From the NCBI GenBank assembly GCA_964229335.1, contig CAXRCZ010000007.1, positions 59,275 through 123,274 of the forward strand: a stretch of DNA of 64,000 nucleotides, read 5' to 3'. This document shows, one piece after another, positions 1 through 45,250 of the stretch. The position numbers and the translations under genes are program-made. This DNA is from Minisyncoccia bacterium (GTDB taxonomy: Bacteria > Patescibacteriota > Minisyncoccia > Phycocordibacterales > UBA918). The notes below the pieces were generated by a model that ran no database searches, was not told the origin of the DNA, and saw only the letters and a program-made list of their open reading frames with translations. How positions within the stretch are numbered: position 1 is the first letter of the stretch; every line of letters begins with the position of its first letter.

Positions 1-988
1 GGTCACCGGGAGTAGGGGTGAAAATATCACCCGACTCGCAGTTGTGTCCTACCACAATGTATTCTTTAGTTTCATCATCATTATTTATCACCTCGATTTT
101 ATGTTGAGCGCCGTACATAGCTGTACGCAAAAAATCATTCATACCAGTATTGATTCGCAGAAAAGTGAAGCCGTCGGCTCCAGTATCGACAATATCGTCG
201 ACAGTTGCTACCAAGGTGCCGGCATGCGCAATCAGGTACGTACCAGGTTCAATTTCAAGCCGTAACTCTCTGCCAGTTTCAGCTGCAAAGTTCTCTAACT
301 TGCTAGAAAAGAGCTCCATTATTACCGACATATCAGCCTCTTTCTCAGTATCATATCGATGCACTTTGAAACCACCTCCGATATCGAGCGCGATGACATC
401 GGGTAATTGCGTGGCAATCGAAAGCGACCGATCCATCACCTCTCCCCACACTTTGGGATCTGAACCTGACCCAACATGGATATGTAGGCGATCAATGATC
501 ACATCATTTTCTTTGGCTAGTGCTAGAGCTTCGGGAATATATTCGTACCAAAGTCCAAACGCTGAGGTTGCTCCCCCGGTACTGGTGCGCTTGTTATGCC
601 CCACCCCCATATCAATATTAATCCGTATCCCAACAGTATCAGGATGATTGGCGGCGGCAATAAAATCTCTCAGTTGTCGCATCGAGGTGGCCACATAGAG
701 CACTCCTTGCTCAAGTAATTCAGCAAGATTAGGAGTTGACTGCTGTGAAGATAGCGAAATCTTATTACCCTCGATACCCATTTCTAATAACTCATCTGCT
801 TCATAACTTGAACTGGCATCAAACTCAACACCTGCAGTATCAATGAGTTTTATTATTTCTGGATGTGGATTGGCTTTAACGGCGTAGCGAGTCGTCAAGC
901 CAAATGGAGCTTCTAGACTAGTTAGTTCTTGTAGTCGTCGCTGTATTATTAATCGACTGTATTCGTAACGCGGAAGTGCTGTAGACAT
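1..988 (-). CDS. PLP-dependent group IV decarboxylase (Orn/DAP/Arg decarboxylase family); mirrored copy of 7181-8311, C-terminus cut by the window start
   Basis: ATG at 986-988 (reverse strand). Sequence is identical to the first 988 nt of 7181-8311. Confidence 0.8.
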   Translation of the reverse strand, partial: MSTALPRYEYSRLIIQRRLQELTSLEAPFGLTTRYAVKANPHPEIIKLIDTAGVEFDASSSYEADELLEMGIEGNKISLSSQQSTPNLAELLEQGVLYVATSMRQLRDFIAAANHPDTVGIRINIDMGVGHNKRTSTGGATSAFGLWYEYIPEALALAKENDVIIDRLHIHVGSGSDPKVWGEVMDRSLSIATQLPDVIALDIGGGFKVHRYDTEKEADMSVIMELFSSKLENFAAETGRELRLEIEPGTYLIAHAGTLVATVDDIVDTGADGFTFLRINTGMNDFLRTAMYGAQHKIEVINNDDETKEYIVVGHNCESGDIFTPTPGD

Positions 989-1014
989 TACTCGTAAATT
1001 ATCAAACTTAAATA

Positions 1015-1587
1015 TTAGACACGAATAAACTCGTCAACTTCTGGGAGCGGCATAATTTCTTTACCATTCTTTACCTTACCTTCCTCAAACGGAAATACAC
1101 TTATACTTCCATCTAATTCTAGATAGGCATATTCGACCTCTCCAATATTTCTCACTCCATTCTTTCTTAGTTCGGATTCTAGTTCAGCTTCAGTAAAGTT
1201 TTCAGTTTCCAACGCATGCTGAATTATTTGCCCATTTTTTACTAACAAATTTGGCCTACTATTAATAAATTTTTCGAAAGGTGACCACTTGAGTTTTAAT
1301 CTCGAAGTACCAAACTGCAACGTAATCACTGTCATAATAATTAGTGCTGCATAAATTATTGCTACAGATGGATAAAACATTACATCTCCCACCGCTGAAC
1401 CGAGCGCTACAATTAGTAACATCTCAACTGGAGTCATTTGTTTACGCGCTTTTTTTCCTCCTGCTCTCAGAAACACTAAGGCAAAGATATAAATAACCAG
1501 AACTCTAAAAGTAATTTCTAACAAGAATACCCATTCACTTTCACCAAAAATTGTTTGTGTTAGATCAAATGTAACTACCGGATCCAT
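1015..1587 (-). CDS. DUF421 (YetF-like) membrane protein
   Basis: 190-aa ORF with N-terminal TM helices and a C-terminal soluble domain typical of DUF421. Twin of 6582-7154. Confidence 0.7.
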   Translation of the reverse strand: MDPVVTFDLTQTIFGESEWVFLLEITFRVLVIYIFALVFLRAGGKKARKQMTPVEMLLIVALGSAVGDVMFYPSVAIIYAALIIMTVITLQFGTSRLKLKWSPFEKFINSRPNLLVKNGQIIQHALETENFTEAELESELRKNGVRNIGEVEYAYLELDGSISVFPFEEGKVKNGKEIMPLPEVDEFIRV

Positions 1588-1629
1588 GAAATTTTCTAAT
1601 TAATACGTGTAACGATTACTACAATATGT

Positions 1630-2238
1630 ATGTATAGTATCTTATTTTTCTTTTTTTCGCTTACGATAGCTGCGTCTGGTTTTTTAAAATGGTATGGTTT
1701 CTTAATGGATTGGATCTATCAGTCATATTCAGATGTGCCACAAATACTGTTCTCAGTAATAGTATTTACTTCGATAGTAGTACTTTATACAAGAATCGTT
1801 GGTCTTCGAAGTTTTTCTAAAATGTCTAGCTTTGATTTTGCCATCACAGTAGCGTTTGGTTCTATACTAGCTTCTGTGGTAATCGCAAAAGAACCTAAGA
1901 TATTCCAAGCTGCAGTAGCTATGGGTGGTTTATATTTGTTTCAATACGTACTGTCATTTATAAAAGTGAGGAATAAATGGTTTGCTACCTTGATTGATAA
2001 TGAACCGATTTTACTAATGAATAATCAAGGTTTTTTAGAAGACAATTTAAAAAAAGCCCGAGTTACTAAAGATGAAGTCAGAGATAAACTACGCAAAGCT
2101 AACGTGCTTCAACTCTCAGAAGTAAGGGCTGTAGTTTTTGAAACTACTGGTGATATTTCTGTATTACACAGTACATCCGACAGAAAAATAGATAGTGAAA
2201 TTACAGCCAACGTAAGAGATAAACATTTAATTCAATAA
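1630..2238 (+). CDS. DUF421 (YetF-like) membrane protein, paralog
   Basis: 202-aa ORF with the same architecture. Twin of 5931-6539. Confidence 0.7.
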   Translation: MYSILFFFFSLTIAASGFLKWYGFLMDWIYQSYSDVPQILFSVIVFTSIVVLYTRIVGLRSFSKMSSFDFAITVAFGSILASVVIAKEPKIFQAAVAMGGLYLFQYVLSFIKVRNKWFATLIDNEPILLMNNQGFLEDNLKKARVTKDEVRDKLRKANVLQLSEVRAVVFETTGDISVLHSTSDRKIDSEITANVRDKHLIQ

Positions 2239-2272
2239 CTAGCCGTCTGGGACAATGTTGGAACTTTTTTAG

Positions 2273-2800
2273 CTAAGAAATCGGCTTAATTTCTACTCCA
2301 CTATCTTTATACTCCCGGTATTCTTCCTTGGTTTCTCTCGAATCTACTGACTTACAATAAAACACTTCGTCACCAAAAGAAGACGGTACATCCCACAGCT
2401 TATGTTTAATAACAGCTCCCCACATCCACTTAGAGAGAACGATGTCATCAGATTTCATTATTCCCCCATGAGTAATATTTTCTCCTCCGTCTTTATAGAA
2501 CACCAGATCTCCAGGTTCTGGATTATTTGTTGCTACAAGAATATTCTTACTAAATAGATGTTTTATAAATTCTTGCTGTACAGGATTGTTTCCTCCAAGG
2601 AACTCTGGATCTTGCTCAAGTCCAAAAGCGAATACGAAACAATTATAGTTTATTAAGTATGCTGGTGGTGGGGCTACTATTGTTAACTCCAAAGGAAGAC
2701 GAGATCGAATATATGCTTCAAATTCATCCGGTACCCACCACTTTCTTCCTTCTTCCTCTTCAATTAGTTCTGTGAGTTCCTCTCTGTCTTTTTTGTTCAT
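2273..2800 (-). CDS. Hypothetical protein, possible papain-like Cys/His hydrolase
   Basis: 175-aa ORF with NCFVFAFG and ITHGG motifs. Twin of 5369-5896. Function not recognised. Confidence 0.55.
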   Translation of the reverse strand: MNKKDREELTELIEEEEGRKWWVPDEFEAYIRSRLPLELTIVAPPPAYLINYNCFVFAFGLEQDPEFLGGNNPVQQEFIKHLFSKNILVATNNPEPGDLVFYKDGGENITHGGIMKSDDIVLSKWMWGAVIKHKLWDVPSSFGDEVFYCKSVDSRETKEEYREYKDSGVEIKPIS

Positions 2801-3101
2801 ATGAAGAGTATACCTTGATCAAGAAGTCGAACTAAATATAGCTGAAATATCGGTGCTAGCCGTCTGGGACAATGTTGGAACTTTTCTGGGGTTATGATAA
2901 CTTACTCACAGGAGGACACCATGCACGAACAATCAAGCTCTTACGCAATGTGTTAACAGATTCTCAACCATCCTCGGTTCAAGGACTCGGACGCTCATGA
3001 GCGTTCATCTCTCTACAATAAATTGTCAGGGATGACATTTTCTGAACTCGCTGAAGAGCGAAAGAAAATTGGTCTACTGACTTATGAAGATTAATTTGCG
3101 T

Positions 3102-3129
3102 CACCTCTTTAACAGGAGGTGGCTTTTTT
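3102..3129 (+). terminator. Rho-independent terminator-like hairpin (mirror copy at 5040-5067 on the minus strand)
   Basis: Stem cacctc / gaggtg with an 8-nt loop, followed by gctttttt. Confidence 0.5.
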
Positions 3130-3161
3130 ACGAGCTACCGGACAGGGACGATGTTGGAACT

Positions 3162-3641
3162 TTATTGGCCAGCCGCTTCTAGAGCAGCAAGTGCATATCG
3201 TTGAGTTTCTGGTCGCATTCTCTCATCTTTTTCTAACAAATCATCTAGGTCTACTCTGGTGCACCATCTGTATTCTGTATCCATACTGTCTTCTTCTTGT
3301 GGATTGATTTCTCTAGAATCAGACCGTGCTGCAAATACTAAAGAGGAGTGGTCGTGTACCTCGTTTATTTTATGACGATTCATAAACAATGGTGGGACAA
3401 GGTCTTTATTTGTTTCAGTATCTGTTTGAGTCCAATTTTTAGGACCAATCAAAGTAACTTTTAGACCTGATTCTTCCCAAGCTTCTCGTACCGCAGCTTC
3501 GTTTGCATCTTCGCCGGGATCAATATGCCCTCCTGGCGTACCCCAATAGTTGTACTTTTCATGCAACCTCAGTAGTACAGCATCTCCATTTACTATGAAG
3601 GTATCTACGCAGAGGTCTAGGTAGTAATTTATATGTGCCAT
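3162..3641 (-). CDS. NUDIX hydrolase
   Basis: Nudix box GGHIDPGEDANEAAVREAWEESGL. Twin of 4528-5007. Confidence 0.85.
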   Translation of the reverse strand: MAHINYYLDLCVDTFIVNGDAVLLRLHEKYNYWGTPGGHIDPGEDANEAAVREAWEESGLKVTLIGPKNWTQTDTETNKDLVPPLFMNRHKINEVHDHSSLVFAARSDSREINPQEEDSMDTEYRWCTRVDLDDLLEKDERMRPETQRYALAALEAAGQ

Positions 3642-3833
3642 ACATGAAAGTATAGCAAATTACTGGACAGGGACTCGGTCAGGAGTCGATTATTTTCATG
3701 AATGAAAATATATCGCTCACGACCCTGGCTCGAAACTCCAGTCCCCCAGACTGGTTTTCTCCGCCTTTCTCGTCCCAGTGCTCGGTATCCATAACGATAA
3801 ATTGCGATAGCAAATGCTATCGCAGTTTAATCG

Positions 3834-3907
3834 TGGCTACCGGACAGGGACTCGAACCCCGATCGCTTGGACCAAAACCAAGTGTCCTACCATTAGACGA
3901 TCCGGTA
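3834..3907 (-). tRNA. tRNA-Gln(TTG), mirror copy
   Basis: Exact reverse complement of 4262-4335. Confidence 0.9.
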
Positions 3908-4261
3908 AAATATTTCATTACCAACGATTTACTAACGGGAGGACGCGCAGTGTCCATACTGTCGAGCTAAGTGAGGGTCTAAAGAAAATATGTTTTCTTT
4001 AGACCGAACGTGCGCTGACAGCAAGCTTTGCTTACCATTAGACGATCCGGTAATTTTGTAAAATATAGGTACGTACTTTGGTACGTACCAAAGTACGTAC
4101 CTATATTTTACAAAATTACCGGATCGTCTAATGGTAAGCAAAGCTTGCTGTCAGCGCACGTTCGGTCTAAAGAAAACATATTTTCTTTAGACCCTCACTT
4201 AGCTCGACAGTATGGACACTGCGCGTCCTCCCGTTAGTAAATCGTTGGTAATGAAATATTT

Positions 4262-4335
4262 TACCGGATCGTCTAATGGTAGGACACTTGGTTTTGGTCC
4301 AAGCGATCGGGGTTCGAGTCCCTGTCCGGTAGCCA
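4262..4335 (+). tRNA. tRNA-Gln(TTG) with encoded CCA
   Basis: Acceptor taccgga/tccggta (U1-A72). Anticodon arm cttgg-ttTTGgt-ccaag. T arm cgggg-ttcgagt-ccctg. Discriminator g followed by cca. Confidence 0.9.
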
Positions 4336-4491
4336 CGATTAAACTGCGATAGCATTTGCTATCGCAATTTATCGTTATGGATACCGAGCACTGGGACGAG
4401 AAAGGCGGAGAAAACCAGTCTGGGGGACTGGAGTTTCGAGCCAGGGTCGTGAGCGATATATTTTCATTCATGAAAATAATCGACTCCTGAC

Positions 4492-4508
4492 CGAGTCCCT
4501 GTCCAGTA
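4492..4508 (+). repeat. R1: near-exact copy of the tRNA-Gln 3' end (mirror at 3661-3677)
   Basis: cgagtccctgtccAgta matches tRNA positions 4315-4331 cgagtccctgtccGgta at 16/17, 177 nt downstream. Confidence 0.85.
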
Positions 4509-4527
4509 ATTTGCTATACTTTCATGT

Positions 4528-5007
4528 ATGGCACATATAAATTACTACCTAGACCTCTGCGTAGATACCTTCATAGTAAATGGAGATGCTGTACTACTGA
4601 GGTTGCATGAAAAGTACAACTATTGGGGTACGCCAGGAGGGCATATTGATCCCGGCGAAGATGCAAACGAAGCTGCGGTACGAGAAGCTTGGGAAGAATC
4701 AGGTCTAAAAGTTACTTTGATTGGTCCTAAAAATTGGACTCAAACAGATACTGAAACAAATAAAGACCTTGTCCCACCATTGTTTATGAATCGTCATAAA
4801 ATAAACGAGGTACACGACCACTCCTCTTTAGTATTTGCAGCACGGTCTGATTCTAGAGAAATCAATCCACAAGAAGAAGACAGTATGGATACAGAATACA
4901 GATGGTGCACCAGAGTAGACCTAGATGATTTGTTAGAAAAAGATGAGAGAATGCGACCAGAAACTCAACGATATGCACTTGCTGCTCTAGAAGCGGCTGG
5001 CCAATAA
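4528..5007 (+). CDS. NUDIX hydrolase
   Basis: 159-aa ORF with a Nudix box. Confidence 0.85.
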   Translation: MAHINYYLDLCVDTFIVNGDAVLLRLHEKYNYWGTPGGHIDPGEDANEAAVREAWEESGLKVTLIGPKNWTQTDTETNKDLVPPLFMNRHKINEVHDHSSLVFAARSDSREINPQEEDSMDTEYRWCTRVDLDDLLEKDERMRPETQRYALAALEAAGQ

Positions 5008-5035
5008 AGTTCCAACATCGTCCCTGTCCGGTAGC
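5007..5035 (+). repeat. R2: att-like repeat aaagttccaacatcgtccctgtccggtagc (mirror at 3134-3162)
   Basis: The last 15 nt, tccctgtccggtagc, are identical to the tRNA-Gln 3' end. The first 14 nt are shared with R3 and R4. Confidence 0.85.
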
Positions 5036-5284
5036 TCGTAAAAAAGCCACCTCCTGTTAAAGAGGTGACGCAAATTAATCTTCATAAGTCAGTAGACCAA
5101 TTTTCTTTCGCTCTTCAGCGAGTTCAGAAAATGTCATCCCTGACAATTTATTGTAGAGAGATGAACGCTCATGAGCGTCCGAGTCCTTGAACCGAGGATG
5201 GTTGAGAATCTGTTAACACATTGCGTAAGAGCTTGATTGTTCGTGCATGGTGTCCTCCTGTGAGTAAGTTATCATAACCCCAGA

Positions 5285-5314
5285 AAAGTTCCAACATTGT
5301 CCCAGACGGCTAGC
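5285..5314 (+). repeat. R3: att-like repeat aaagttccaacattgtcccagacggctagc (mirror at 2855-2884)
   Basis: Direct repeat of R4, and shares 11/15 of its 3' part with R2. Confidence 0.85.
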
Positions 5315-5368
5315 ACCGATATTTCAGCTATATTTAGTTCGACTTCTTGATCAAGGTATACTCTTCAT

Positions 5369-5896
5369 ATGAACAAAAAAGACAGAGAGGAACTCACAGA
5401 ACTAATTGAAGAGGAAGAAGGAAGAAAGTGGTGGGTACCGGATGAATTTGAAGCATATATTCGATCTCGTCTTCCTTTGGAGTTAACAATAGTAGCCCCA
5501 CCACCAGCATACTTAATAAACTATAATTGTTTCGTATTCGCTTTTGGACTTGAGCAAGATCCAGAGTTCCTTGGAGGAAACAATCCTGTACAGCAAGAAT
5601 TTATAAAACATCTATTTAGTAAGAATATTCTTGTAGCAACAAATAATCCAGAACCTGGAGATCTGGTGTTCTATAAAGACGGAGGAGAAAATATTACTCA
5701 TGGGGGAATAATGAAATCTGATGACATCGTTCTCTCTAAGTGGATGTGGGGAGCTGTTATTAAACATAAGCTGTGGGATGTACCGTCTTCTTTTGGTGAC
5801 GAAGTGTTTTATTGTAAGTCAGTAGATTCGAGAGAAACCAAGGAAGAATACCGGGAGTATAAAGATAGTGGAGTAGAAATTAAGCCGATTTCTTAG
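5369..5896 (+). CDS. Hypothetical protein, possible papain-like Cys/His hydrolase
   Basis: 175-aa ORF flanked by R3 and R4. Confidence 0.55.
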   Translation: MNKKDREELTELIEEEEGRKWWVPDEFEAYIRSRLPLELTIVAPPPAYLINYNCFVFAFGLEQDPEFLGGNNPVQQEFIKHLFSKNILVATNNPEPGDLVFYKDGGENITHGGIMKSDDIVLSKWMWGAVIKHKLWDVPSSFGDEVFYCKSVDSRETKEEYREYKDSGVEIKPIS

Positions 5897-5901
5897 CTAA
5901 A

Positions 5902-5930
5902 AAAGTTCCAACATTGTCCCAGACGGCTAG
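5902..5930 (+). repeat. R4: att-like repeat aaagttccaacattgtcccagacggctag (mirror at 2239-2267)
   Basis: Identical to R3 over 29 nt. Confidence 0.85.
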
Positions 5931-6539
5931 TTATTGAATTAAATGTTTATCTCTTACGTTGGCTGTAATTTCACTATCTATTTTTCTGTCGGATGTACTG
6001 TGTAATACAGAAATATCACCAGTAGTTTCAAAAACTACAGCCCTTACTTCTGAGAGTTGAAGCACGTTAGCTTTGCGTAGTTTATCTCTGACTTCATCTT
6101 TAGTAACTCGGGCTTTTTTTAAATTGTCTTCTAAAAAACCTTGATTATTCATTAGTAAAATCGGTTCATTATCAATCAAGGTAGCAAACCATTTATTCCT
6201 CACTTTTATAAATGACAGTACGTATTGAAACAAATATAAACCACCCATAGCTACTGCAGCTTGGAATATCTTAGGTTCTTTTGCGATTACCACAGAAGCT
6301 AGTATAGAACCAAACGCTACTGTGATGGCAAAATCAAAGCTAGACATTTTAGAAAAACTTCGAAGACCAACGATTCTTGTATAAAGTACTACTATCGAAG
6401 TAAATACTATTACTGAGAACAGTATTTGTGGCACATCTGAATATGACTGATAGATCCAATCCATTAAGAAACCATACCATTTTAAAAAACCAGACGCAGC
6501 TATCGTAAGCGAAAAAAAGAAAAATAAGATACTATACAT
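5931..6539 (-). CDS. DUF421 (YetF-like) membrane protein
   Basis: 202-aa ORF. Confidence 0.7.
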   Translation of the reverse strand: MYSILFFFFSLTIAASGFLKWYGFLMDWIYQSYSDVPQILFSVIVFTSIVVLYTRIVGLRSFSKMSSFDFAITVAFGSILASVVIAKEPKIFQAAVAMGGLYLFQYVLSFIKVRNKWFATLIDNEPILLMNNQGFLEDNLKKARVTKDEVRDKLRKANVLQLSEVRAVVFETTGDISVLHSTSDRKIDSEITANVRDKHLIQ

Positions 6540-6581
6540 ACATATTGTAGTAATCGTTACACGTATTAATTAGAAAATTTC

Positions 6582-7154
6582 ATGGATCCGGTAGTTACAT
6601 TTGATCTAACACAAACAATTTTTGGTGAAAGTGAATGGGTATTCTTGTTAGAAATTACTTTTAGAGTTCTGGTTATTTATATCTTTGCCTTAGTGTTTCT
6701 GAGAGCAGGAGGAAAAAAAGCGCGTAAACAAATGACTCCAGTTGAGATGTTACTAATTGTAGCGCTCGGTTCAGCGGTGGGAGATGTAATGTTTTATCCA
6801 TCTGTAGCAATAATTTATGCAGCACTAATTATTATGACAGTGATTACGTTGCAGTTTGGTACTTCGAGATTAAAACTCAAGTGGTCACCTTTCGAAAAAT
6901 TTATTAATAGTAGGCCAAATTTGTTAGTAAAAAATGGGCAAATAATTCAGCATGCGTTGGAAACTGAAAACTTTACTGAAGCTGAACTAGAATCCGAACT
7001 AAGAAAGAATGGAGTGAGAAATATTGGAGAGGTCGAATATGCCTATCTAGAATTAGATGGAAGTATAAGTGTATTTCCGTTTGAGGAAGGTAAGGTAAAG
7101 AATGGTAAAGAAATTATGCCGCTCCCAGAAGTTGACGAGTTTATTCGTGTCTAA
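6582..7154 (+). CDS. DUF421 (YetF-like) membrane protein
   Basis: 190-aa ORF. Confidence 0.7.
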   Translation: MDPVVTFDLTQTIFGESEWVFLLEITFRVLVIYIFALVFLRAGGKKARKQMTPVEMLLIVALGSAVGDVMFYPSVAIIYAALIIMTVITLQFGTSRLKLKWSPFEKFINSRPNLLVKNGQIIQHALETENFTEAELESELRKNGVRNIGEVEYAYLELDGSISVFPFEEGKVKNGKEIMPLPEVDEFIRV

Positions 7155-7180
7155 TATTTAAGTTTGATAATTTACGAGTA

Positions 7181-8311
7181 ATGTCTACAGCACTTCCGCG
7201 TTACGAATACAGTCGATTAATAATACAGCGACGACTACAAGAACTAACTAGTCTAGAAGCTCCATTTGGCTTGACGACTCGCTACGCCGTTAAAGCCAAT
7301 CCACATCCAGAAATAATAAAACTCATTGATACTGCAGGTGTTGAGTTTGATGCCAGTTCAAGTTATGAAGCAGATGAGTTATTAGAAATGGGTATCGAGG
7401 GTAATAAGATTTCGCTATCTTCACAGCAGTCAACTCCTAATCTTGCTGAATTACTTGAGCAAGGAGTGCTCTATGTGGCCACCTCGATGCGACAACTGAG
7501 AGATTTTATTGCCGCCGCCAATCATCCTGATACTGTTGGGATACGGATTAATATTGATATGGGGGTGGGGCATAACAAGCGCACCAGTACCGGGGGAGCA
7601 ACCTCAGCGTTTGGACTTTGGTACGAATATATTCCCGAAGCTCTAGCACTAGCCAAAGAAAATGATGTGATCATTGATCGCCTACATATCCATGTTGGGT
7701 CAGGTTCAGATCCCAAAGTGTGGGGAGAGGTGATGGATCGGTCGCTTTCGATTGCCACGCAATTACCCGATGTCATCGCGCTCGATATCGGAGGTGGTTT
7801 CAAAGTGCATCGATATGATACTGAGAAAGAGGCTGATATGTCGGTAATAATGGAGCTCTTTTCTAGCAAGTTAGAGAACTTTGCAGCTGAAACTGGCAGA
7901 GAGTTACGGCTTGAAATTGAACCTGGTACGTACCTGATTGCGCATGCCGGCACCTTGGTAGCAACTGTCGACGATATTGTCGATACTGGAGCCGACGGCT
8001 TCACTTTTCTGCGAATCAATACTGGTATGAATGATTTTTTGCGTACAGCTATGTACGGCGCTCAACATAAAATCGAGGTGATAAATAATGATGATGAAAC
8101 TAAAGAATACATTGTGGTAGGACACAACTGCGAGTCGGGTGATATTTTCACCCCTACTCCCGGTGACCCAGAAGAAATCGAACCGAGAATGTTAAATAAA
8201 GCAGAGATTGGCGACGAGATACGTATTTATGATGTTGGTGCGTATGGCGCAAGTATGCGAGCCAAGGGCTACAACTCGTTTCCAGACGCTGTTGAGGTGA
8301 TAGTCGATTAG
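7181..8311 (+). CDS. PLP-dependent group IV decarboxylase (LysA / Orn / Arg / carboxynorspermidine decarboxylase family)
   Basis: Motifs YAVKANP (PLP lysine), HIHVGSGS, DIGGGF, EPGTYL, GHNCESGD, GAYGASM. Confidence 0.8.
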   Translation: MSTALPRYEYSRLIIQRRLQELTSLEAPFGLTTRYAVKANPHPEIIKLIDTAGVEFDASSSYEADELLEMGIEGNKISLSSQQSTPNLAELLEQGVLYVATSMRQLRDFIAAANHPDTVGIRINIDMGVGHNKRTSTGGATSAFGLWYEYIPEALALAKENDVIIDRLHIHVGSGSDPKVWGEVMDRSLSIATQLPDVIALDIGGGFKVHRYDTEKEADMSVIMELFSSKLENFAAETGRELRLEIEPGTYLIAHAGTLVATVDDIVDTGADGFTFLRINTGMNDFLRTAMYGAQHKIEVINNDDETKEYIVVGHNCESGDIFTPTPGDPEEIEPRMLNKAEIGDEIRIYDVGAYGASMRAKGYNSFPDAVEVIVD

Positions 8312-8686: not shown

Positions 8687-10477
8687 ATGCAACAATCAGA
8701 AATTCGCAATATCGCTATTATCGCTCACGTAGACCACGGTAAAACTACACTTACCGATGGTTTGATGGAGTTTACTGGTGCCAGAGAAGGGGATGCGTCG
8801 ATGGACAACAACGCGTTAGAGCAAGAACGAGGTATTACCATCTATGCCAAAAACACTTCTGTTGACTATAAAGATACAAAAATCAACATTATTGATACAC
8901 CCGGCCACGCGGACTTTGGGTCTGAGGTTGAGCGTATTTTGCGTAGTATTGACTGCGTTTTGCTGGTGGTAGACGCGCAGGAAGGGCCAATGCCGCAAAC
9001 TAGATTTGTATTAAAAAAATCTCTTGAACTCGGACACAAACCGATTGTGATTATCAACAAGATTGATAAGCCAGCAGCCAATCCTGATCAGTGCGAAGAG
9101 CAGGTACTAGAACTCTTCTGGGAGCTTGGCGCCAGCGATGAACAAAGCGAATTCCCAGTAGTGTACGCTGTCGGTAGAGACAAGGTGGCTAAGCGAAATC
9201 TGACTGACGAAATGACAGACCTCTCTCCAGTACTCGATACAATTCTCGAACATGTTCCAGCCGCCAAAGGATATACCGAAAACGACCCACTCCGAGCTCA
9301 AGTATTCAACCTCGGGTACGATAACTTTTTAGGACGACTAGCGGTAGCGAGAATTTACGAGGGTAAGGTGAGTAAAGGTCAATCAGTGATTGTAAAGCAT
9401 AAAGGCGAGGAGTCCTACAAAGGAAAAATCGTCAAACTATCTGGCTACAAAGGAGTGCAACAAGTAGAGGTTGAAGAAGCGTTTGCTGGCGATATCGTTT
9501 TGATAGCGGGGCTCGAAAAAATAAATATCGGTGACACTATTACCGATACTGATGAAGCAGAACCACTACCAGCAATTGAGGTTGATGAACCAACCGTAAG
9601 TATGACCTTCTTAGTCAACTCTTCGCCTTTTGCTGGAAGAGAAGGTAAGTATGTTACTAGTCGACAGATTGGTGAGCGGTTAGAAAAGGAGTTAGAAATC
9701 AATGTTGGTTTGCAAGTAGAGCAGGCAACAGGTGACGCGTATGTCGTAAAAGGTCGGGGTGAAATGCACATTGCAATTTTGCTTGAAAATATGCGGCGTG
9801 AGGGATATGAACTGTCAGTTTCTCAACCAAAAGTTATTTTCCGGGAAGAGAATGGTCAGACTCTTGAGCCATTTGAAGAAGCGATTATTGATATCCCGAG
9901 CGAATACCAAGGATCAGTGATTGAACGTCTTAGCAATCGTGGTTTTATTATGCAAAACATGGTTCCGCATGAGAACCAAGTTCGACTTATATTCGAAGGT
10001 CCTACCCGCGGTCTATTGGGATATAAAAACCAATTTATTATTGATACGAAAGGAGAGGGAATTCTATCTTCACGGTTCATTGAATTCCGTCCACATGCCG
10101 GAGAAATCAAAAAACGCCAAGTTGGCTCAATGACATCGATGACTACAGGAAAAGCTCTCGGCTTTGCATTGGCTGGTTTGCAGGACCGTGGCGAGCTCTA
10201 TATTGGCGCGGGTACCGAAGTGTATGAAGGGATGGTTATCGGCAACACCAACAAAGGTGAAGAAATGGCGGTAAACCCGACTAAAGGCAAACAGCTCACC
10301 AACATGCGTGCCTCAGGTAGTGACGACAACGTTTCACTTACTCCGCACCGACCACTGAAGATTGAGACAGGTTTGGAAATTATGCAGGAAGATGAGTATC
10401 TAGAAGTCTGTCCAGAAAGTATTCGCTTGCGTAAGCAACTACTCAAAGAAAACGAACGATCACGCCTGCGCCGCTAG
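8687..10477 (+). CDS. typA: Translational GTPase TypA/BipA
   Basis: [17 protein letters not shown] and DTPGHADF motifs. Length 596 aa with an EF-G-like domain order. Confidence 0.9.
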
Positions 10478-15623: not shown

Positions 15624-16029
15624 TTGCATACTATGCAGGCACGATGGTCGCCTAAGCTAGTAAATTGTGAACCACAATTGGATAGTTTGGGAGGAAAGTC
15701 CGAACACGCACTAGATTATCTAGTAGCCGGGTAGCGGGTAACACCCGTCATTTAGTCTTTGACTAAAAGAGGTGCGAGCAGAGACGTCACAATCGAAAGA
15801 AAGTGAGTTCCTTCGGGAATAGCTCTATAAGAAATTATAGAGGTGAAACGGCTAAATCCTTACCTGCGTGCAAGGCCGTGCTTTTGTCTCATGGCAAAAG
15901 AGAGCCGCATGAAATATCGAGTAATTGATATTCAAGATATATGACCATCCTAGCCTCACTTTTTGTGTGTGTTTAGACACTAAATACGTACAAAAAGTGA
16001 GGCTACGACAGAATTCGGCTTATGTGCAA
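15624..16029 (+). ncRNA. rnpB: RNase P RNA (bacterial type A)
   Basis: GGAGGAAAGTCCG (CR-I) at about 15692. ACAGAATTCGGCTTAT (CR-V) at about 16008. Terminal pairing ttgca/tgcaa. Terminator at 16033-16055. Contains a long extra hairpin at about 15950-16005. Confidence 0.85.
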
Positions 16030-16112
16030 AAAAGCAGCTCGCAAGAGCTGCTTTTACTATATGATAGACTGAGTCTATAGGAGGCAACAATAGTGTTTTA
16101 AATAATTTTTAT

Positions 16113-22159: not shown

Positions 22160-22279
22160 TTACACCGCTCCTACACCACCAGAATAGGCAAAAATCATGC
22201 TGATTGCGATAATGGCTGCAAACACAATCCAAACCCACTTCACCGCTTTCTTGCCACGTTTATGAAATAGTATACTCAT
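22160..22279 (-). CDS. Very small membrane protein (hypothetical)
   Basis: 39 aa, MSILFHKRGKKAVKWVWIVFAAIIAISMIF..., a basic stretch followed by one TM helix. Confidence 0.3.
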   Translation of the reverse strand: MSILFHKRGKKAVKWVWIVFAAIIAISMIFAYSGGVGAV

Positions 22280-22382
22280 ACGCTCTATTCTACCTGAAGA
22301 TACTAATAATTTTAAGGGTTGATGGTAGTATAGTAGTGGTGTGTCTTTCCACACAGATTTATGTCTGCGAAAGATTATATTG

Positions 22383-22438
22383 GCCGCTCGTTACAGCCAT
22401 AATCTCCCTTGATAGGTCGATTCTGGCTAAACGCCGGC
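22383..22438 (+). repeat. 56-nt three-stem hairpin motif, copy 1 (candidate structured RNA leader)
   Basis: gccg-ct-cgt-tac-agcca-[24 nt with GTCGATTC]-tggct-aa-acg-c-cggc. Lies 43 nt upstream of the ftsB-like start. Confidence 0.6.
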
Positions 22439-22481
22439 ATAAATTCGCAATATTCGTGTTATCACACTCATTTGCTCATTC

Positions 22482-42446: not shown

Positions 42447-43607
42447 TTAGAGCGTCACACTACTTTTTCGGCGCAGGCGTTTGACAGCTTCGTGCATATT
42501 AACAAATTCCTGGTTTCGAGCGTCCATATCGCGCAGTATCACTGTATCTTCGACAAATTCTTTTTGCCCGATAATGATGGAGTACTTCACCCCTTTGTTT
42601 TCCGCATCGCGCAGCTGCGCTGATAATGAATCAGACGTTAGGTCGTGAAAGACAGGCACACCAGCTTGTTTAAGAGCGTCTATCAGCAGCAAACTGCGGA
42701 TTTTTGGTCCAAAGCCGAGGTGAACTACATATACCGCTGGGGTGATACTTTTTATACGAGGTAGTCGAGCAGGGGTCTTGGAATTTTTAAGGGTCACCAC
42801 TACACCAGCGGCAGGTGTGCGAGCGTGCGTGTTGCGGTGAACAAATTCGTCAAATCGACCGCCTTGGATAGTTAGCGGCGGCTCGTCTTCGCCTAGCAAG
42901 TCGATAGAGAAAATAGCGTCTGAGTAGCATTCATGGTGAGCCATCATCTTTGGGTCTATCTCATATGGAGTGTCACTCATATCGAGAAATTCAATGATCT
43001 CTCGAAAGTGCTTGCGGCTCGGATCGCTCAAGTATTCTAGAGGGTTAGGTGAACGCTGGGCCAGTTCATGATTTTCCTTAATGAGTTGACTCAGGGCACG
43101 CAGAGGGTGTTCTTTCATTAACTCACGAGCCTCAGACGACATAGTGTCCATTCGTTTCTTAAGGAAATTAGTCAACTCGCGCGTATATCGCGCGACTGAA
43201 TCTCGGTCTCCAAGTGAATTAATTCGCACTGAGTGTTCAGTGTGGCCGAGGTCAGTAGCTAAAGCACGGGCAGTTTGAATGAGTAAGGCTTCAGCAATGC
43301 TTTTTTCAGCATTGAAGACATGAAAGATTACCGCCGCTTCACCGGTTCGTGGGGTTTGGGCAATAGAGTAAAAGAGAACCGGTCGATCAAACGCATGAAG
43401 CTGGTCTTCACAGTAGGTAACTAGTCCCGAACTCAACAAACCATTTTGTTCATCAACACGCTTATTAAGACCAGTGACTGAATGGGGAAGGGTGACAGTG
43501 CACTCTTTGCACTCAGTTTCTTTTTTGAGTTGCTCAGCCTCCCGAAATCCAAAGTGTTCAGCCACTTGGCGAGCAGTTTTAAGGAAATCTGTTGGAGAGT
43601 AAGACAT
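42447..43607 (-). CDS. HisRS-like class II aaRS paralog with an HGTP anticodon-binding domain and degenerate catalytic motifs
   Basis: INSLGD and QGGRFDEF match HisRS. The C-terminal VYVVHLG...KYSIIIGQKE matches the HGTP domain. The motif-2 arginines and RGLDYY are not recognisable. Confidence 0.6.
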   Translation of the reverse strand: MSYSPTDFLKTARQVAEHFGFREAEQLKKETECKECTVTLPHSVTGLNKRVDEQNGLLSSGLVTYCEDQLHAFDRPVLFYSIAQTPRTGEAAVIFHVFNAEKSIAEALLIQTARALATDLGHTEHSVRINSLGDRDSVARYTRELTNFLKKRMDTMSSEARELMKEHPLRALSQLIKENHELAQRSPNPLEYLSDPSRKHFREIIEFLDMSDTPYEIDPKMMAHHECYSDAIFSIDLLGEDEPPLTIQGGRFDEFVHRNTHARTPAAGVVVTLKNSKTPARLPRIKSITPAVYVVHLGFGPKIRSLLLIDALKQAGVPVFHDLTSDSLSAQLRDAENKGVKYSIIIGQKEFVEDTVILRDMDARNQEFVNMHEAVKRLRRKSSVTL

Positions 43608-43608
43608 A

Positions 43609-44229
43609 TTAGTTAGAGGTATTAGTTACGCTAGTAATGGCGCCTGGAAAAAACTCAAATGACTGAGGCGGAAACAGTCGTACCCACGCTCTGCCAATAA
43701 TCTTATCCTCTTCCAGTGGTCCCCAGGTGCGAGAGTCAGAGCTTTTATCACGATTATCACCCATCACAAAATATTCATCTTCACTGAGGGTGGTAGTGAA
43801 TGGAGCGGTCGGTGTCATTTGAGCGATGTATGGTTCGTCTAGTACAAAGCCATTGGGTGAATTTTGATTAGATATTGTCACTTCGTTATCAATGATTGAA
43901 ATGGTTTCTCCTGGTAAGCCAATCACTCGCTTAATAAAGAATTTTGATGGATCACGGGGGTAGCGGAATATGATTACTTCACCGCGAGCAGGCTCATCAA
44001 AGTGGTAAGTTACTTGATCAATTATCAAATACTCACCGGTATAAAATGTCTCTTCCATAGATGCGCCAGAGACAATAAATGGTTGAGCAATAAATAACCG
44101 AATCGGGACTACGATAATAATGGCGATGATAGAAAAGCGGACAATTTCTGCGAGAGGATGCTCCTTCTTCTCCGGTTTGGTGGTGTCGGTAGAAAGATCA
44201 GTGGAGGGTTGTTGAGAAAATAACGCCAT
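43609..44229 (-). CDS. lepB: Signal peptidase I
   Basis: SGASME (Ser box), RVIGLPGE, and GDNRDKSSDSR. Confidence 0.9.
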   Translation of the reverse strand: MALFSQQPSTDLSTDTTKPEKKEHPLAEIVRFSIIAIIIVVPIRLFIAQPFIVSGASMEETFYTGEYLIIDQVTYHFDEPARGEVIIFRYPRDPSKFFIKRVIGLPGETISIIDNEVTISNQNSPNGFVLDEPYIAQMTPTAPFTTTLSEDEYFVMGDNRDKSSDSRTWGPLEEDKIIGRAWVRLFPPQSFEFFPGAITSVTNTSN

Positions 44230-44323
44230 GAGAAGATGATTTTTATTATTATACGAAATTTTAGAAGGTAAAACAAATTAAGCAAAATCACGAGCAACAA
44301 AGTTGCGACTAAATTTTGCTTAT

Positions 44324-44379
44324 GCCGGCGCTTAGCCAGAATCGACCTCTCAAGGGATATTTTGGCTGTAGCGAGCGGC
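44324..44379 (-). repeat. 56-nt three-stem hairpin motif, copy 2
   Basis: Minus strand reads gccg-ct-cgc-tac-agcca-[24 nt with GTCGATTC]-tggct-aa-gcg-c-cggc. Lies 94 nt upstream of the lepB ATG. Confidence 0.6.
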
Positions 44380-44423
44380 AAAGGAAGTCTGTTCCGTTGC
44401 CGACAGTTAAAGCAAGTACTTAT

Positions 44424-44479
44424 ACAGGCACTTAATCAGATTCGACTTCTCTAGGAAGAATATGATTGTAGTGAGCTGT
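44424..44479 (-). repeat. 56-nt three-stem hairpin motif, copy 3
   Basis: Minus strand reads acag-ct-cac-tac-aatca-[24 nt with GTCGAATC]-tgatt-aa-gtg-c-ctgt. Exactly 100 nt from copy 2. Confidence 0.6.
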
Positions 44480-44662
44480 AAAGAAAGTACAACATCAACT
44501 ACTATTAGTTAAATTACTCTGAAGTGATTGGGTCGGCACTGTGCTTAGAACACGAATCGAGTTCTCCGCTCACAATCTTAGATTGCTCCGCGAGATTCCA
44601 ATCACAGCGCCGACCCAACACCGCCCTCCGAAAACACTAAACAACATGCTATTGTTTTAAGA

Positions 44663-45250
44663 ATGCATTACATCGTAGGACTAGGGAATCCAGGTACAAA
44701 GTATGAAGAAACCCGTCACAATGTTGGCTGGATGCTGCTGGATTACATGAGAGAACAGGCCTCACTACCGGCTTTGGTGCACGAGAAGAAAAATAGTGCC
44801 CACCTGACTGAAGGTAGTATTAGCGGAGTATCAGTGAAGCTCATATACCCTGACACATATATGAATAACTCTGGCTCAGCGGTGGCAAAATTTGTCTCGA
44901 AGGATGAGATTCAGAATTTAATTGTTGTTCACGATGATGTGGACTTGCCATTTGGTACGATTAAAATTGGTAAGGGTAGGGGTGATGGTGGTAACAACGG
45001 CATCAAATCCATCATTTCAAAGCTTGGCAGCAAAGATTTTATTAGAATTCGTATCGGCATAGCTCCCACTAGTTTTTGGACTGGCGAAGTCAAGCGACCG
45101 CGAGGGGGAAGGGTGCTCGAAAGTTTCGTACTCAAGCCATTTAGCAAGAAAGAGGAAAAGCAGCTCAATGAAGTGTTGGAAAAGACTTATAAAGCACTTC
45201 AGGAGATACTAAAAAACGGCCCCGAAGTCGCGATGAACAGATTCAATTAA
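44663..45250 (+). CDS. pth: Peptidyl-tRNA hydrolase
   Basis: VGLGNPG..Y..TRHNVGW start and HDD(V)DLPFG. Confidence 0.92.
   Translation: MHYIVGLGNPGTKYEETRHNVGWMLLDYMREQASLPALVHEKKNSAHLTEGSISGVSVKLIYPDTYMNNSGSAVAKFVSKDEIQNLIVVHDDVDLPFGTIKIGKGRGDGGNNGIKSIISKLGSKDFIRIRIGIAPTSFWTGEVKRPRGGRVLESFVLKPFSKKEEKQLNEVLEKTYKALQEILKNGPEVAMNRFN

Follow-up and report, generated by a model that had tools for sequence, protein, structure and literature searches.

The window analysed here is a 64-kb stretch of DNA that contains three copies of a hairpin of about 57 nt (HP1) at two intergenic sites. Copy 1 lies on the plus strand upstream of a divIC/ftsB-like gene, and copies 2 and 3 lie in tandem on the minus strand in the spacer between pth and lepB. 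The gene downstream of lepB (42447-43607, minus strand) encodes a 386-aa protein, for which the precomputed annotations of homologues give an HGTP_anticodon domain only (HisRS-like or HisZ-like); this gene is syntenic in all relatives. The features of the two sites are listed below, and the strand given for each hairpin (the listed strand) is that of the preliminary description of this DNA.

22326-22334, plus strand: promoter-like TAGTATAGT upstream of copy 1, read from the sequence; counterpart of the TAGTATACT/TACAAT -10 in element-free relatives
22383-22438, plus strand: HP1 copy 1, 43 nt 5' of the divIC/ftsB-like ATG (22482); orthologues in loci L015 and L022
22449-22481, plus strand: 3' module of copy 1, with the box AATATTCG, the hairpin GUGU-UAUC-ACAC (22456-22467) and a U-rich run up to the divIC ATG
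44501-44506, minus strand: -10-like AATAGT in ACTAATAGTAGTTGATGTTG, 21 nt upstream of copy 3, read from the sequence; resembles TAGTATAGTAGTGGTGTG upstream of copy 1
44479-44424, minus strand: HP1 copy 3, 100 nt upstream of copy 2; every stem altered relative to copy 2 by paired changes
44379-44324, minus strand: HP1 copy 2, a five-segment rod with P1 GCCG/CGGC, P2 CGCU/AGCG, P3 AGCCA/UGGCU, P4 AAU/AUU and P5 CCU/AGG
44306-44313, minus strand: box of copy 2, TTTAGTCG (consensus (A/T)ATAGTCG), exactly 10 nt after the hairpin; a -10-like sequence
44280-44321, minus strand: second hairpin (HP2) of copy 2, with the outer stem AAGCAAAAU/AUUUUGCUU around GCAAC-UUU-GUUGC (44306-44294), then a U-rich tail; terminator-like
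44276-44248, minus strand: lepB promoter TTGTTT-17-TATAAT between copy 2 and the lepB ATG, conserved in relatives without the element

On the minus strand, copy 2 reads GCCG-CT-CGC-TAC-AGCCA-[24 nt]-TGGCT-AA-GCG-C-CGGC-ATAA and copy 3 reads ACAG-CT-CAC-TAC-AATCA-[24]-TGATT-AA-GTG-C-CTGT-ATAA, with a spacing of exactly 100 nt between them. Copy 1 has the same layout on the plus strand. The layout, pairing and positions of the three hairpins, read from the sequence of both loci, are exactly those given in the preliminary description. The 24 nt enclosed by P3 had been described as a loop of constant length. The length is indeed constant, but the segment is not unpaired, as it contains the helices P4 (AWUC/GAWU), in which A-U covaries with U-A, and P5 (CCU/AGG). 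The hairpin is therefore composed of five short helical segments rather than three, and the W in the conserved motif GTCGAWTC is explained by the covariation of P4. The invariant unpaired nucleotides of HP1 are the CU bulge, the AC/A loop, the UC/UC loop and the C opposite N; GUCGAWUC is likewise counted among the invariant bulges and internal loops.

Copies 1, 2 and 3 are each predicted to fold into the proposed rod, and their MFE z-scores relative to shuffles range from -2.1 to -3.2. When both strands of the 64-kb window were searched with the 15-mer GTCGAWTCTGRYTAA, allowing up to two substitutions, only the three hairpin sites were found. The covariance model scored the three copies at 85-91 bits (E of about 1e-23 to 1e-25) and returned no further match within the window.

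Family, covariation and the conserved unit

Additional copies were identified by two routes. Scans of species-representative genomes and JGI metagenomes with conservative patterns yielded L001 and L002-L006, and contigs fetched via LepB and LepA homologues yielded further copies in L009 (two copies, L009a and L009b), L015, L022 and L025. Copies per genome and associated genes were assessed on the 64 kb of the window genome and on fragments of its relatives of up to 20 kb. The family contains 11 distinct full copies (three from the window and eight others) from seven independent genomic contexts in at least five genomes, and three copies each are present in the window and on contig k141_494286. 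Copies within one genome are 70-90% identical, and the GC content of the hairpin is 35-55%. Judging by the names of close LepA and LepB homologues, all carriers are Patescibacteria of the Paceibacteria/Parcubacteria type. The covariance model found no copy in the other related contigs, which add up to about 100 kb or more of distinct sequence, and no match to a degenerate family pattern was obtained in viral contigs. The HP1 family is a set of multi-copy structured intergenic units in a few Patescibacteria genomes.

In the model-fitted alignment of the 11 copies, 96.4% of the cells are paired and double changes occur in 12 of the 20 pairs; 30 cells are doubly changed and two are single-sided (G-U). 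The observed pairing and covariation were matched by none of 500 shuffles, and pairing dropped to 25-35% in controls with slid partners. A MAFFT alignment of nine copies gave similar results (93% of cells pair; 10 of 22 pairs doubly changed), and an independent run of RNAalifold recovered P1-P4 with 12 of 17 pairs covarying. In P1, P2 and P3, the orthologous copies at the divIC site (window, L015 and L022) differ through paired changes, whereas the remaining spacer is barely alignable beyond short motifs; the pairing has therefore been maintained in place. Together these data are strong evidence that base pairing is under selection in the HP1 family, as had been proposed on the basis of the window copies.

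No Rfam, tRNA or tmRNA model matches the element, which agrees with the preliminary view that it is not a known riboswitch or leader. A scan of the whole window with Rfam 15 at gathering score returned 10 tRNAs only, a search of 44200-44700 at E ≤ 10 returned only spurious miRNA and sroH matches, and nothing was found on the elements of L003, L005, L006 and L022 at E ≤ 1. The HP1 family appears to be undescribed; its general kind (structured intergenic hairpin unit or small RNA) is already known.

Two other observations were made during annotation of the window. An RNase P class A RNA is located at 15639-16031 (plus strand; 73 bits, E 3e-22); it was missed in the default scan because its score is under the Rfam gathering score of 100, and the syntenic copy in L022 scores 105 bits. 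Positions 1-8168 form a perfect fold-back, the arms of which (1-4084 and 4085-8168) are 100% complementary without a spacer and mirror their genes, including two tRNA-Gln genes (3834-3907, minus strand; 4262-4335, plus strand). The fold-back is most likely an assembly artefact at the contig end, with a real hairpin end as a conceivable alternative.

The conserved unit exceeds the hairpin and consists of HP1, ATAA, the (A/T)ATAGTCG box, a short covarying hairpin and a U-rich tail. AUAA (or ACAC/AUCA) is found directly 3' of HP1 in all copies, and the box begins exactly 10 nt past the hairpin in seven of the nine copies examined. Five copies have a perfect short hairpin after the box, with unrelated sequences (GUGU/ACAC, GCGC/GCGC, ACGCGC/GCGCGU, GCAAC/GUUGC and AUAUGC/GCAUAU), followed by the U-rich tail. 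The short hairpin of copy 1 covaries with GCGC-AAUA-GCGC in L015 and ACGCGC-AUU-GCGCGU in L022. A terminator scan classified two of the 3' hairpins (copy 2 and L022) as terminator-like on the listed strand; several are weak as terminators (4-bp stems), and L001 and L004 deviate. Three 3' subtypes (ATAAATTC..., ATAAGCAAA... and ATCACYACAAGAG...) are each kept between genomes, and the subfamily of copy 1, L015, L022 and L009a terminates in ...TTCATG.

Upstream of HP1, -10-like hexamers were identified by eye at 20-50 nt, including TATAGT (copy 1 and L003), TATACT (L022), TAAGAT (L015), TATAAT (L025) and AATAGT (copy 3). In L003 and L025, the TATAGT/TATAAT hexamer is located 32-33 nt upstream of the unit. 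The AATAGT at 44501-44506 is a possible promoter of a transcript containing copies 3 and 2. A sigma-70 promoter scan called no promoter upstream of HP1, the distance of these boxes to HP1 is not fixed, and AT-rich spacers readily give such hexamers.

The divIC site, the lepB spacer and other contexts

The divIC site is occupied in three genomes (window, L015 and L022) and empty in the contigs of five relatives. In the five element-free relatives, a -10 sequence (TAGTATACT or TACAAT) is located 6-11 nt from the divIC start codon, which suggests that their divIC mRNA is leaderless or near-leaderless. In the three occupied genomes, 26-52 nt separate the corresponding -10 from HP1, after which come the box, the short hairpin and a U-rich run reaching the ATG. 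No promoter-like hexamer occurs at leaderless distance from the ATG of the occupied sites, and between HP1 and the divIC ATG only the box, at a distance of about 27-31 nt from the ATG, is -10-like. Copy 1 can accordingly be read as a bona fide leader with predicted attenuator architecture at divIC. The filled and empty sites represent a natural experiment in which an apparently leaderless form of the gene is set against one that has a structured leader of 130-155 nt with a terminator-like hairpin at its end.

Many genes of the clade lack a Shine-Dalgarno sequence and have a -10 hexamer just 6-11 nt before the start codon. Examples are pth (44632-44665), a 39-aa ORF at 22278-22315 (hydrophobic and membrane-protein-like by reading) and the divIC genes of L017, L019, L020, L023 and L024. 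This suggests that leaderless or near-leaderless mRNAs are widespread in the clade.

All copies had been assigned to the 5' regions of envelope or secretion genes. This is valid for copy 1, which, like the copies of L015 and L022, lies between the promoter and the divIC ATG, but not for copies 2 and 3, which lie upstream of the lepB promoter. The block TTTGTTTT...TTTCGTATAAT 5' of lepB is also present in L008, L009, L012/L013 and L025, and a terminator-like hairpin (44306-44294 and its T-tail) separates copy 2 from the lepB promoter. As the conserved promoter and the terminator-like hairpin are both downstream of copy 2, the suggested lepB leader was not supported, and copies 2 and 3 are predicted to lie outside the lepB 5' UTR. 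The pth-lepB spacer of L008, L009 and L025 is about 110 nt long and contains a terminator-like hairpin only, and that of L012/L013 (about 420 nt) contains a called small ORF and then terminator-like hairpins. The element is absent from all of these spacers, and among the relatives compared the site is occupied in the window only. The window spacer measures 434 nt and contains a long unrelated hairpin, then copy 3 and copy 2. Given the conserved promoter and the short element-free spacers of the relatives, it is therefore regarded as a lineage-specific insertion upstream of the lepB promoter.

The long hairpin (99 nt; GGTGTTGGGTCGGCGCTGTG ... CACAGTGCCGACCCAATCAC; 44524-44622, minus strand) is immediately upstream of copy 3 and unique among all loci compared. 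It shares TCGATTC, CTAAGC and GCCG with the family and was considered as a fourth copy; this was rejected, as the model scores nothing there even with filters off and BLAST found the sequence to be unique to the window genome. A different terminator-like hairpin is located between the divergent pth and lepB promoters of L008 (about 1270-1312), L009 (about 9926-9965) and L025 (about 2196-2234). It has a conserved loop, (A)CGAAG(T), and wholly different stems (AAAACGTCGGAGAAA.., GAAGCAATAAGA.. and AAAAGGCGTGTGAGA..), is absent from the window and may be a second covarying element.

The other contexts are diverse. The unit of L001 begins 14 nt after the stop codon of an rsmI-like gene, on the same strand; downstream of the unit is the separate promoter of a small ORF, membrane-protein-like by its hydrophobic sequence. 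The L003 element is flanked by two bidirectional terminators and faces the convergent xth gene, the L009a element follows a terminator and also faces a convergent gene, and L004 and the L009b/L025 pair are antisense to the flanking genes. A co-oriented downstream gene is thus missing from four of the seven independent contexts (L003, L004, L009a and L009b/L025), and in spacers between genes of the same direction the element lies in sense in one case and in antisense in two. The bias for 5' UTRs and orientation on which the preliminary description had staked its idea is largely absent; the mixed orientation and the lack of a consistent downstream gene therefore argue against a dedicated leader.

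Arrays were found at two loci. That of L003 (1376-1747) contains four 94-nt units with 99% identity, three truncated units being followed by a complete one, and a similar array of 93-nt units with a different copy number is present in L002 (1753-2023), which comes from another sample. The array units (97-99% identity) comprise the TATAGT box, the leader and the 5' two-thirds of the hairpin, and the last unit alone is complete. All-against-all BLAST of the ±700-nt flanks detected the element itself and syntenic coding sequence only, and the possibility of a larger conserved non-coding locus was dismissed on this basis. In a LepA tree of these relatives, which share about 85% LepA identity, genomes with and without the element are intermixed; being star-like, this tree does not discriminate between a single gain and several.

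Interpretation of the element

The explanation tentatively preferred is a modular structured-RNA unit that has been duplicated and inserted at unrelated intergenic sites, and that functions as a leader or attenuator at divIC and as a stand-alone unit elsewhere. The unit would be about 110-150 nt long and would comprise a -10-like box 20-50 nt upstream (in most copies), HP1, AUAA-N6-(A/U)AUAGUCG at a fixed distance, and a short hairpin with a U-rich tail. Transcription on the listed strand would produce a small structured RNA ending at a weak, leaky intrinsic terminator. HP1 would serve as a recognition platform, most likely for a protein, because the unpaired nucleotides are invariant and the stems are free to covary. 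The unit may have spread by tandem duplication, which is supported by the 100-nt spacing of copies 3 and 2 and by the arrays of L003 and L002, and by insertion into unrelated spacers. Insertion between a promoter and an otherwise leaderless start (copy 1, L015 and L022) would have created a promoter-HP1-terminator-ATG leader and possible attenuator. Copies 3 and 2 would represent a stand-alone tandem unit ending just before the separate lepB promoter. The stand-alone role is supported by copies located between terminators or facing a convergent gene (L003 and L009a).

The listed strand is favoured because the short 3' hairpins with U tails are meaningful on that strand only, and transcription through the element in that direction is proposed because the arrangements at divIC and L001 force it; the sequence layout implies the same direction at L003 and L025. 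Against the preferred explanation, the opposite strand folds better by 0.7-11.5 kcal/mol in all nine copies tested, because the conserved C.A mismatches turn into G.U. A structured RNA transcribed from the opposite strand is nevertheless very unlikely. In that case the box, read as CGACTAT(A/T), would serve as a -10 element 8-10 nt upstream, with transcription beginning at the hairpin foot. The greater stability in nine of nine copies, the formation of P5 in all of them, the conversion of an invariant C.A into an invariant G.U, and the TATATT/TATTCT/TAAATT-like hexamers read by eye 8-11 nt from the hairpin are consistent with such an RNA. However, on that strand neither a terminator nor a U-tract follows the hairpin, the short 3' hairpins and their U-rich tails make sense on the other strand only, and the divIC and L001 layouts point the other way. 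Counts of G-U against A-C gave five variable wobble-compatible cells on the opposite strand and two on the listed strand, a difference that is not decisive.

The main rival of the modular RNA unit is a DNA-level palindromic dispersed repeat (REP/MITE-like), the single-stranded or cruciform hairpin of which serves its own mobilisation or maintenance (e.g., HUH/Y1 recognition or hairpin-templated correction), with any RNA effect being incidental. The family is multi-copy and strictly intergenic, occurs in seven unrelated contexts in both orientations relative to its neighbours, includes tandem arrays with truncated units, and shows presence/absence polymorphism at two orthologous sites (divIC and pth-lepB). 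The interleaving of occupied and empty genomes on the LepA tree also favours a repeat, and the scattered occurrence of the element in relatives that share about 85% LepA identity looks like that of a mobile repeat as much as that of a gene. The substitutions are almost purely Watson-Crick to Watson-Crick on either strand (30 double changes against two G-U) and are equally expected of a DNA hairpin. In addition, small bacterial repeats that fold into stem-loops, carry promoters and show compensatory changes have been documented (PMC3184786). The unit itself fits a repeat less well, as it is not bounded by terminal inverted repeats and is asymmetric, the box and the second hairpin being confined to one side. 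Comparison of filled and empty sites shows no target-site duplication, the 70-90% identity within a genome indicates that there was no recent burst, and no transposase is present in the gene lists of any locus examined. The density is low, with two loci in 64 kb and none in the related contigs searched with the model. Moreover, arm-to-arm correction should erase the asymmetric bulges, which are invariant, and the orthologues retain structure and loops while their flanks have diverged, which implies selection in place. Selection on the folded molecule rather than passive upkeep of a palindrome is therefore favoured, and the DNA repeat is considered somewhat unlikely.

The view taken in the preliminary description, namely a dedicated cis-regulatory 5' leader of envelope, secretion or division genes (riboswitch-like or a protein-dependent attenuator), is considered unlikely. 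The order of promoter, HP1, terminator-like hairpin and ATG is conserved at divIC in three genomes, and the co-oriented downstream genes, where present, are of membrane proteins (divIC-like, LepB and, by its hydrophobic sequence, a membrane-like 75-aa ORF). A dedicated leader is difficult to reconcile with the lepB promoter conserved downstream of copy 2 and the terminator-like hairpin in between, with the four contexts that lack a co-oriented downstream gene, and with the situation in most relatives, in which divIC and lepB are expressed although the element is absent. No conserved alternative (antiterminator-type) pairing between HP1 and the 3' hairpin was seen on reading the sequences.

A more specific proposal, which is considered unlikely, is that the modular RNA unit represents a new class of structured regulatory RNA in the Paceibacteria (CPR). 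It would combine a protein- or ligand-binding rod hairpin with a leaky terminator, would be insertable so as to attenuate leaderless genes such as divIC, and would also occur as stand-alone or tandem small RNAs. To our knowledge, which is based on a limited literature search, CPR/Patescibacteria have few described regulatory RNAs apart from the universal ones, and such a class, if real, would be among the first covariation-supported candidate riboregulators in Patescibacteria. The clean covariation (12 of 20 pairs from 11 sequences), the invariant unpaired nucleotides and the modular 3' part make HP1 a good candidate for a new Rfam-type family and for the identification of a partner that binds RNA (or a DNA hairpin). 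If the family is REP/MITE-like instead, it would be, as far as known, a new repeat family of this kind for Patescibacteria, useful for strain typing and for studies of reduced-genome dynamics.

Comparison with known systems

Several known elements were considered and rejected. A tmRNA fragment or tag was suggested by UAGUCG and a 13-codon frame between TAA codons, ending in DFA-stop, which are shared by copy 2 and L001; the stop is not conserved in other copies, the frame is absent from L004, copy 1, L003 and L009a, and ARAGORN and Rfam were negative. A peptide-coding hairpin (PLATAKISLERSILAKRRHK-like frame) has no conserved start, its stops vary, and by reading, the paired substitutions explain the apparent conservation. 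In TIGR-Tas arrays, the tandem units have variable spacers bordered by box C/D motifs, and a Nop-domain Tas gene is adjacent (PMC12045711), whereas the loops and bulges of HP1 are conserved and its neighbours are housekeeping genes. The hairpin feet carry no RYYYAAC/GTTRRRY cores of integron attC sites, and no cassette array or integrase is present in the gene lists of the loci. A link to oriC and DnaA boxes, prompted by TCTGTGGAAAAC near L003 and L009a, was discarded because no cluster of at least three boxes within 400 nt was found anywhere.

Tandem and paralogous sRNA genes (PrrF1/2 and OmrA/B) and riboswitch-terminated transcripts resemble the unit in having a promoter-like box, a conserved structured domain at the 5' end, an A/U-rich single-stranded stretch and a U-tailed hairpin, and in occurring as tandem and dispersed paralogues. 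The HP1 units differ from PrrF1/2 and OmrA/B in being known from sequence alone and in their patchy distribution even among close relatives. REP/BIME elements with RAYT are likewise extragenic, sometimes clustered, imperfect palindromes kept by compensatory changes. HP1, however, is 57 nt long (REP, 20-40 nt) and not GC-rich, it clusters in direct tandem arrangement and not as alternating inverted pairs, and the GTAG of REPs is absent from the hairpin foot, occurring in HP1 only inside the opposite-strand internal loop.

MITE-type repeats (Correia/NEMIS, ERIC and RUP) and SPRITE repeats are similar in size class, intergenic position, formation of a fold-back RNA if co-transcribed, insertion polymorphism and possible promoter or terminator activity. 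The HP1 family shares with MITEs the insertion polymorphism (divIC and pth-lepB) and the presence of multiple copies per genome, but no terminal inverted repeats bound the unit, which extends asymmetrically on its 3' side, and the filled and empty divIC and lepB sites show no target-site duplication. It also has no cognate transposase among the genes found, and its copy density is low and its divergence high. The Neisseria REP2 and Borrelia IR-type repeats (PMC3184786) are dispersed intergenic sequences of about 100-180 bp with internal stem-loops, which can directly precede genes and bring a promoter and a start codon. A similar arrangement is seen in copy 1, L015, L022 and L009a, which end in TTCATG, and a -10-like box is present in all copies of the family. 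The HP1 family has no sequence relationship to these repeats and many of its copies have no downstream gene; it is distinguished by one long covarying rod hairpin with invariant bulges and by its occurrence in the phylum Patescibacteria.
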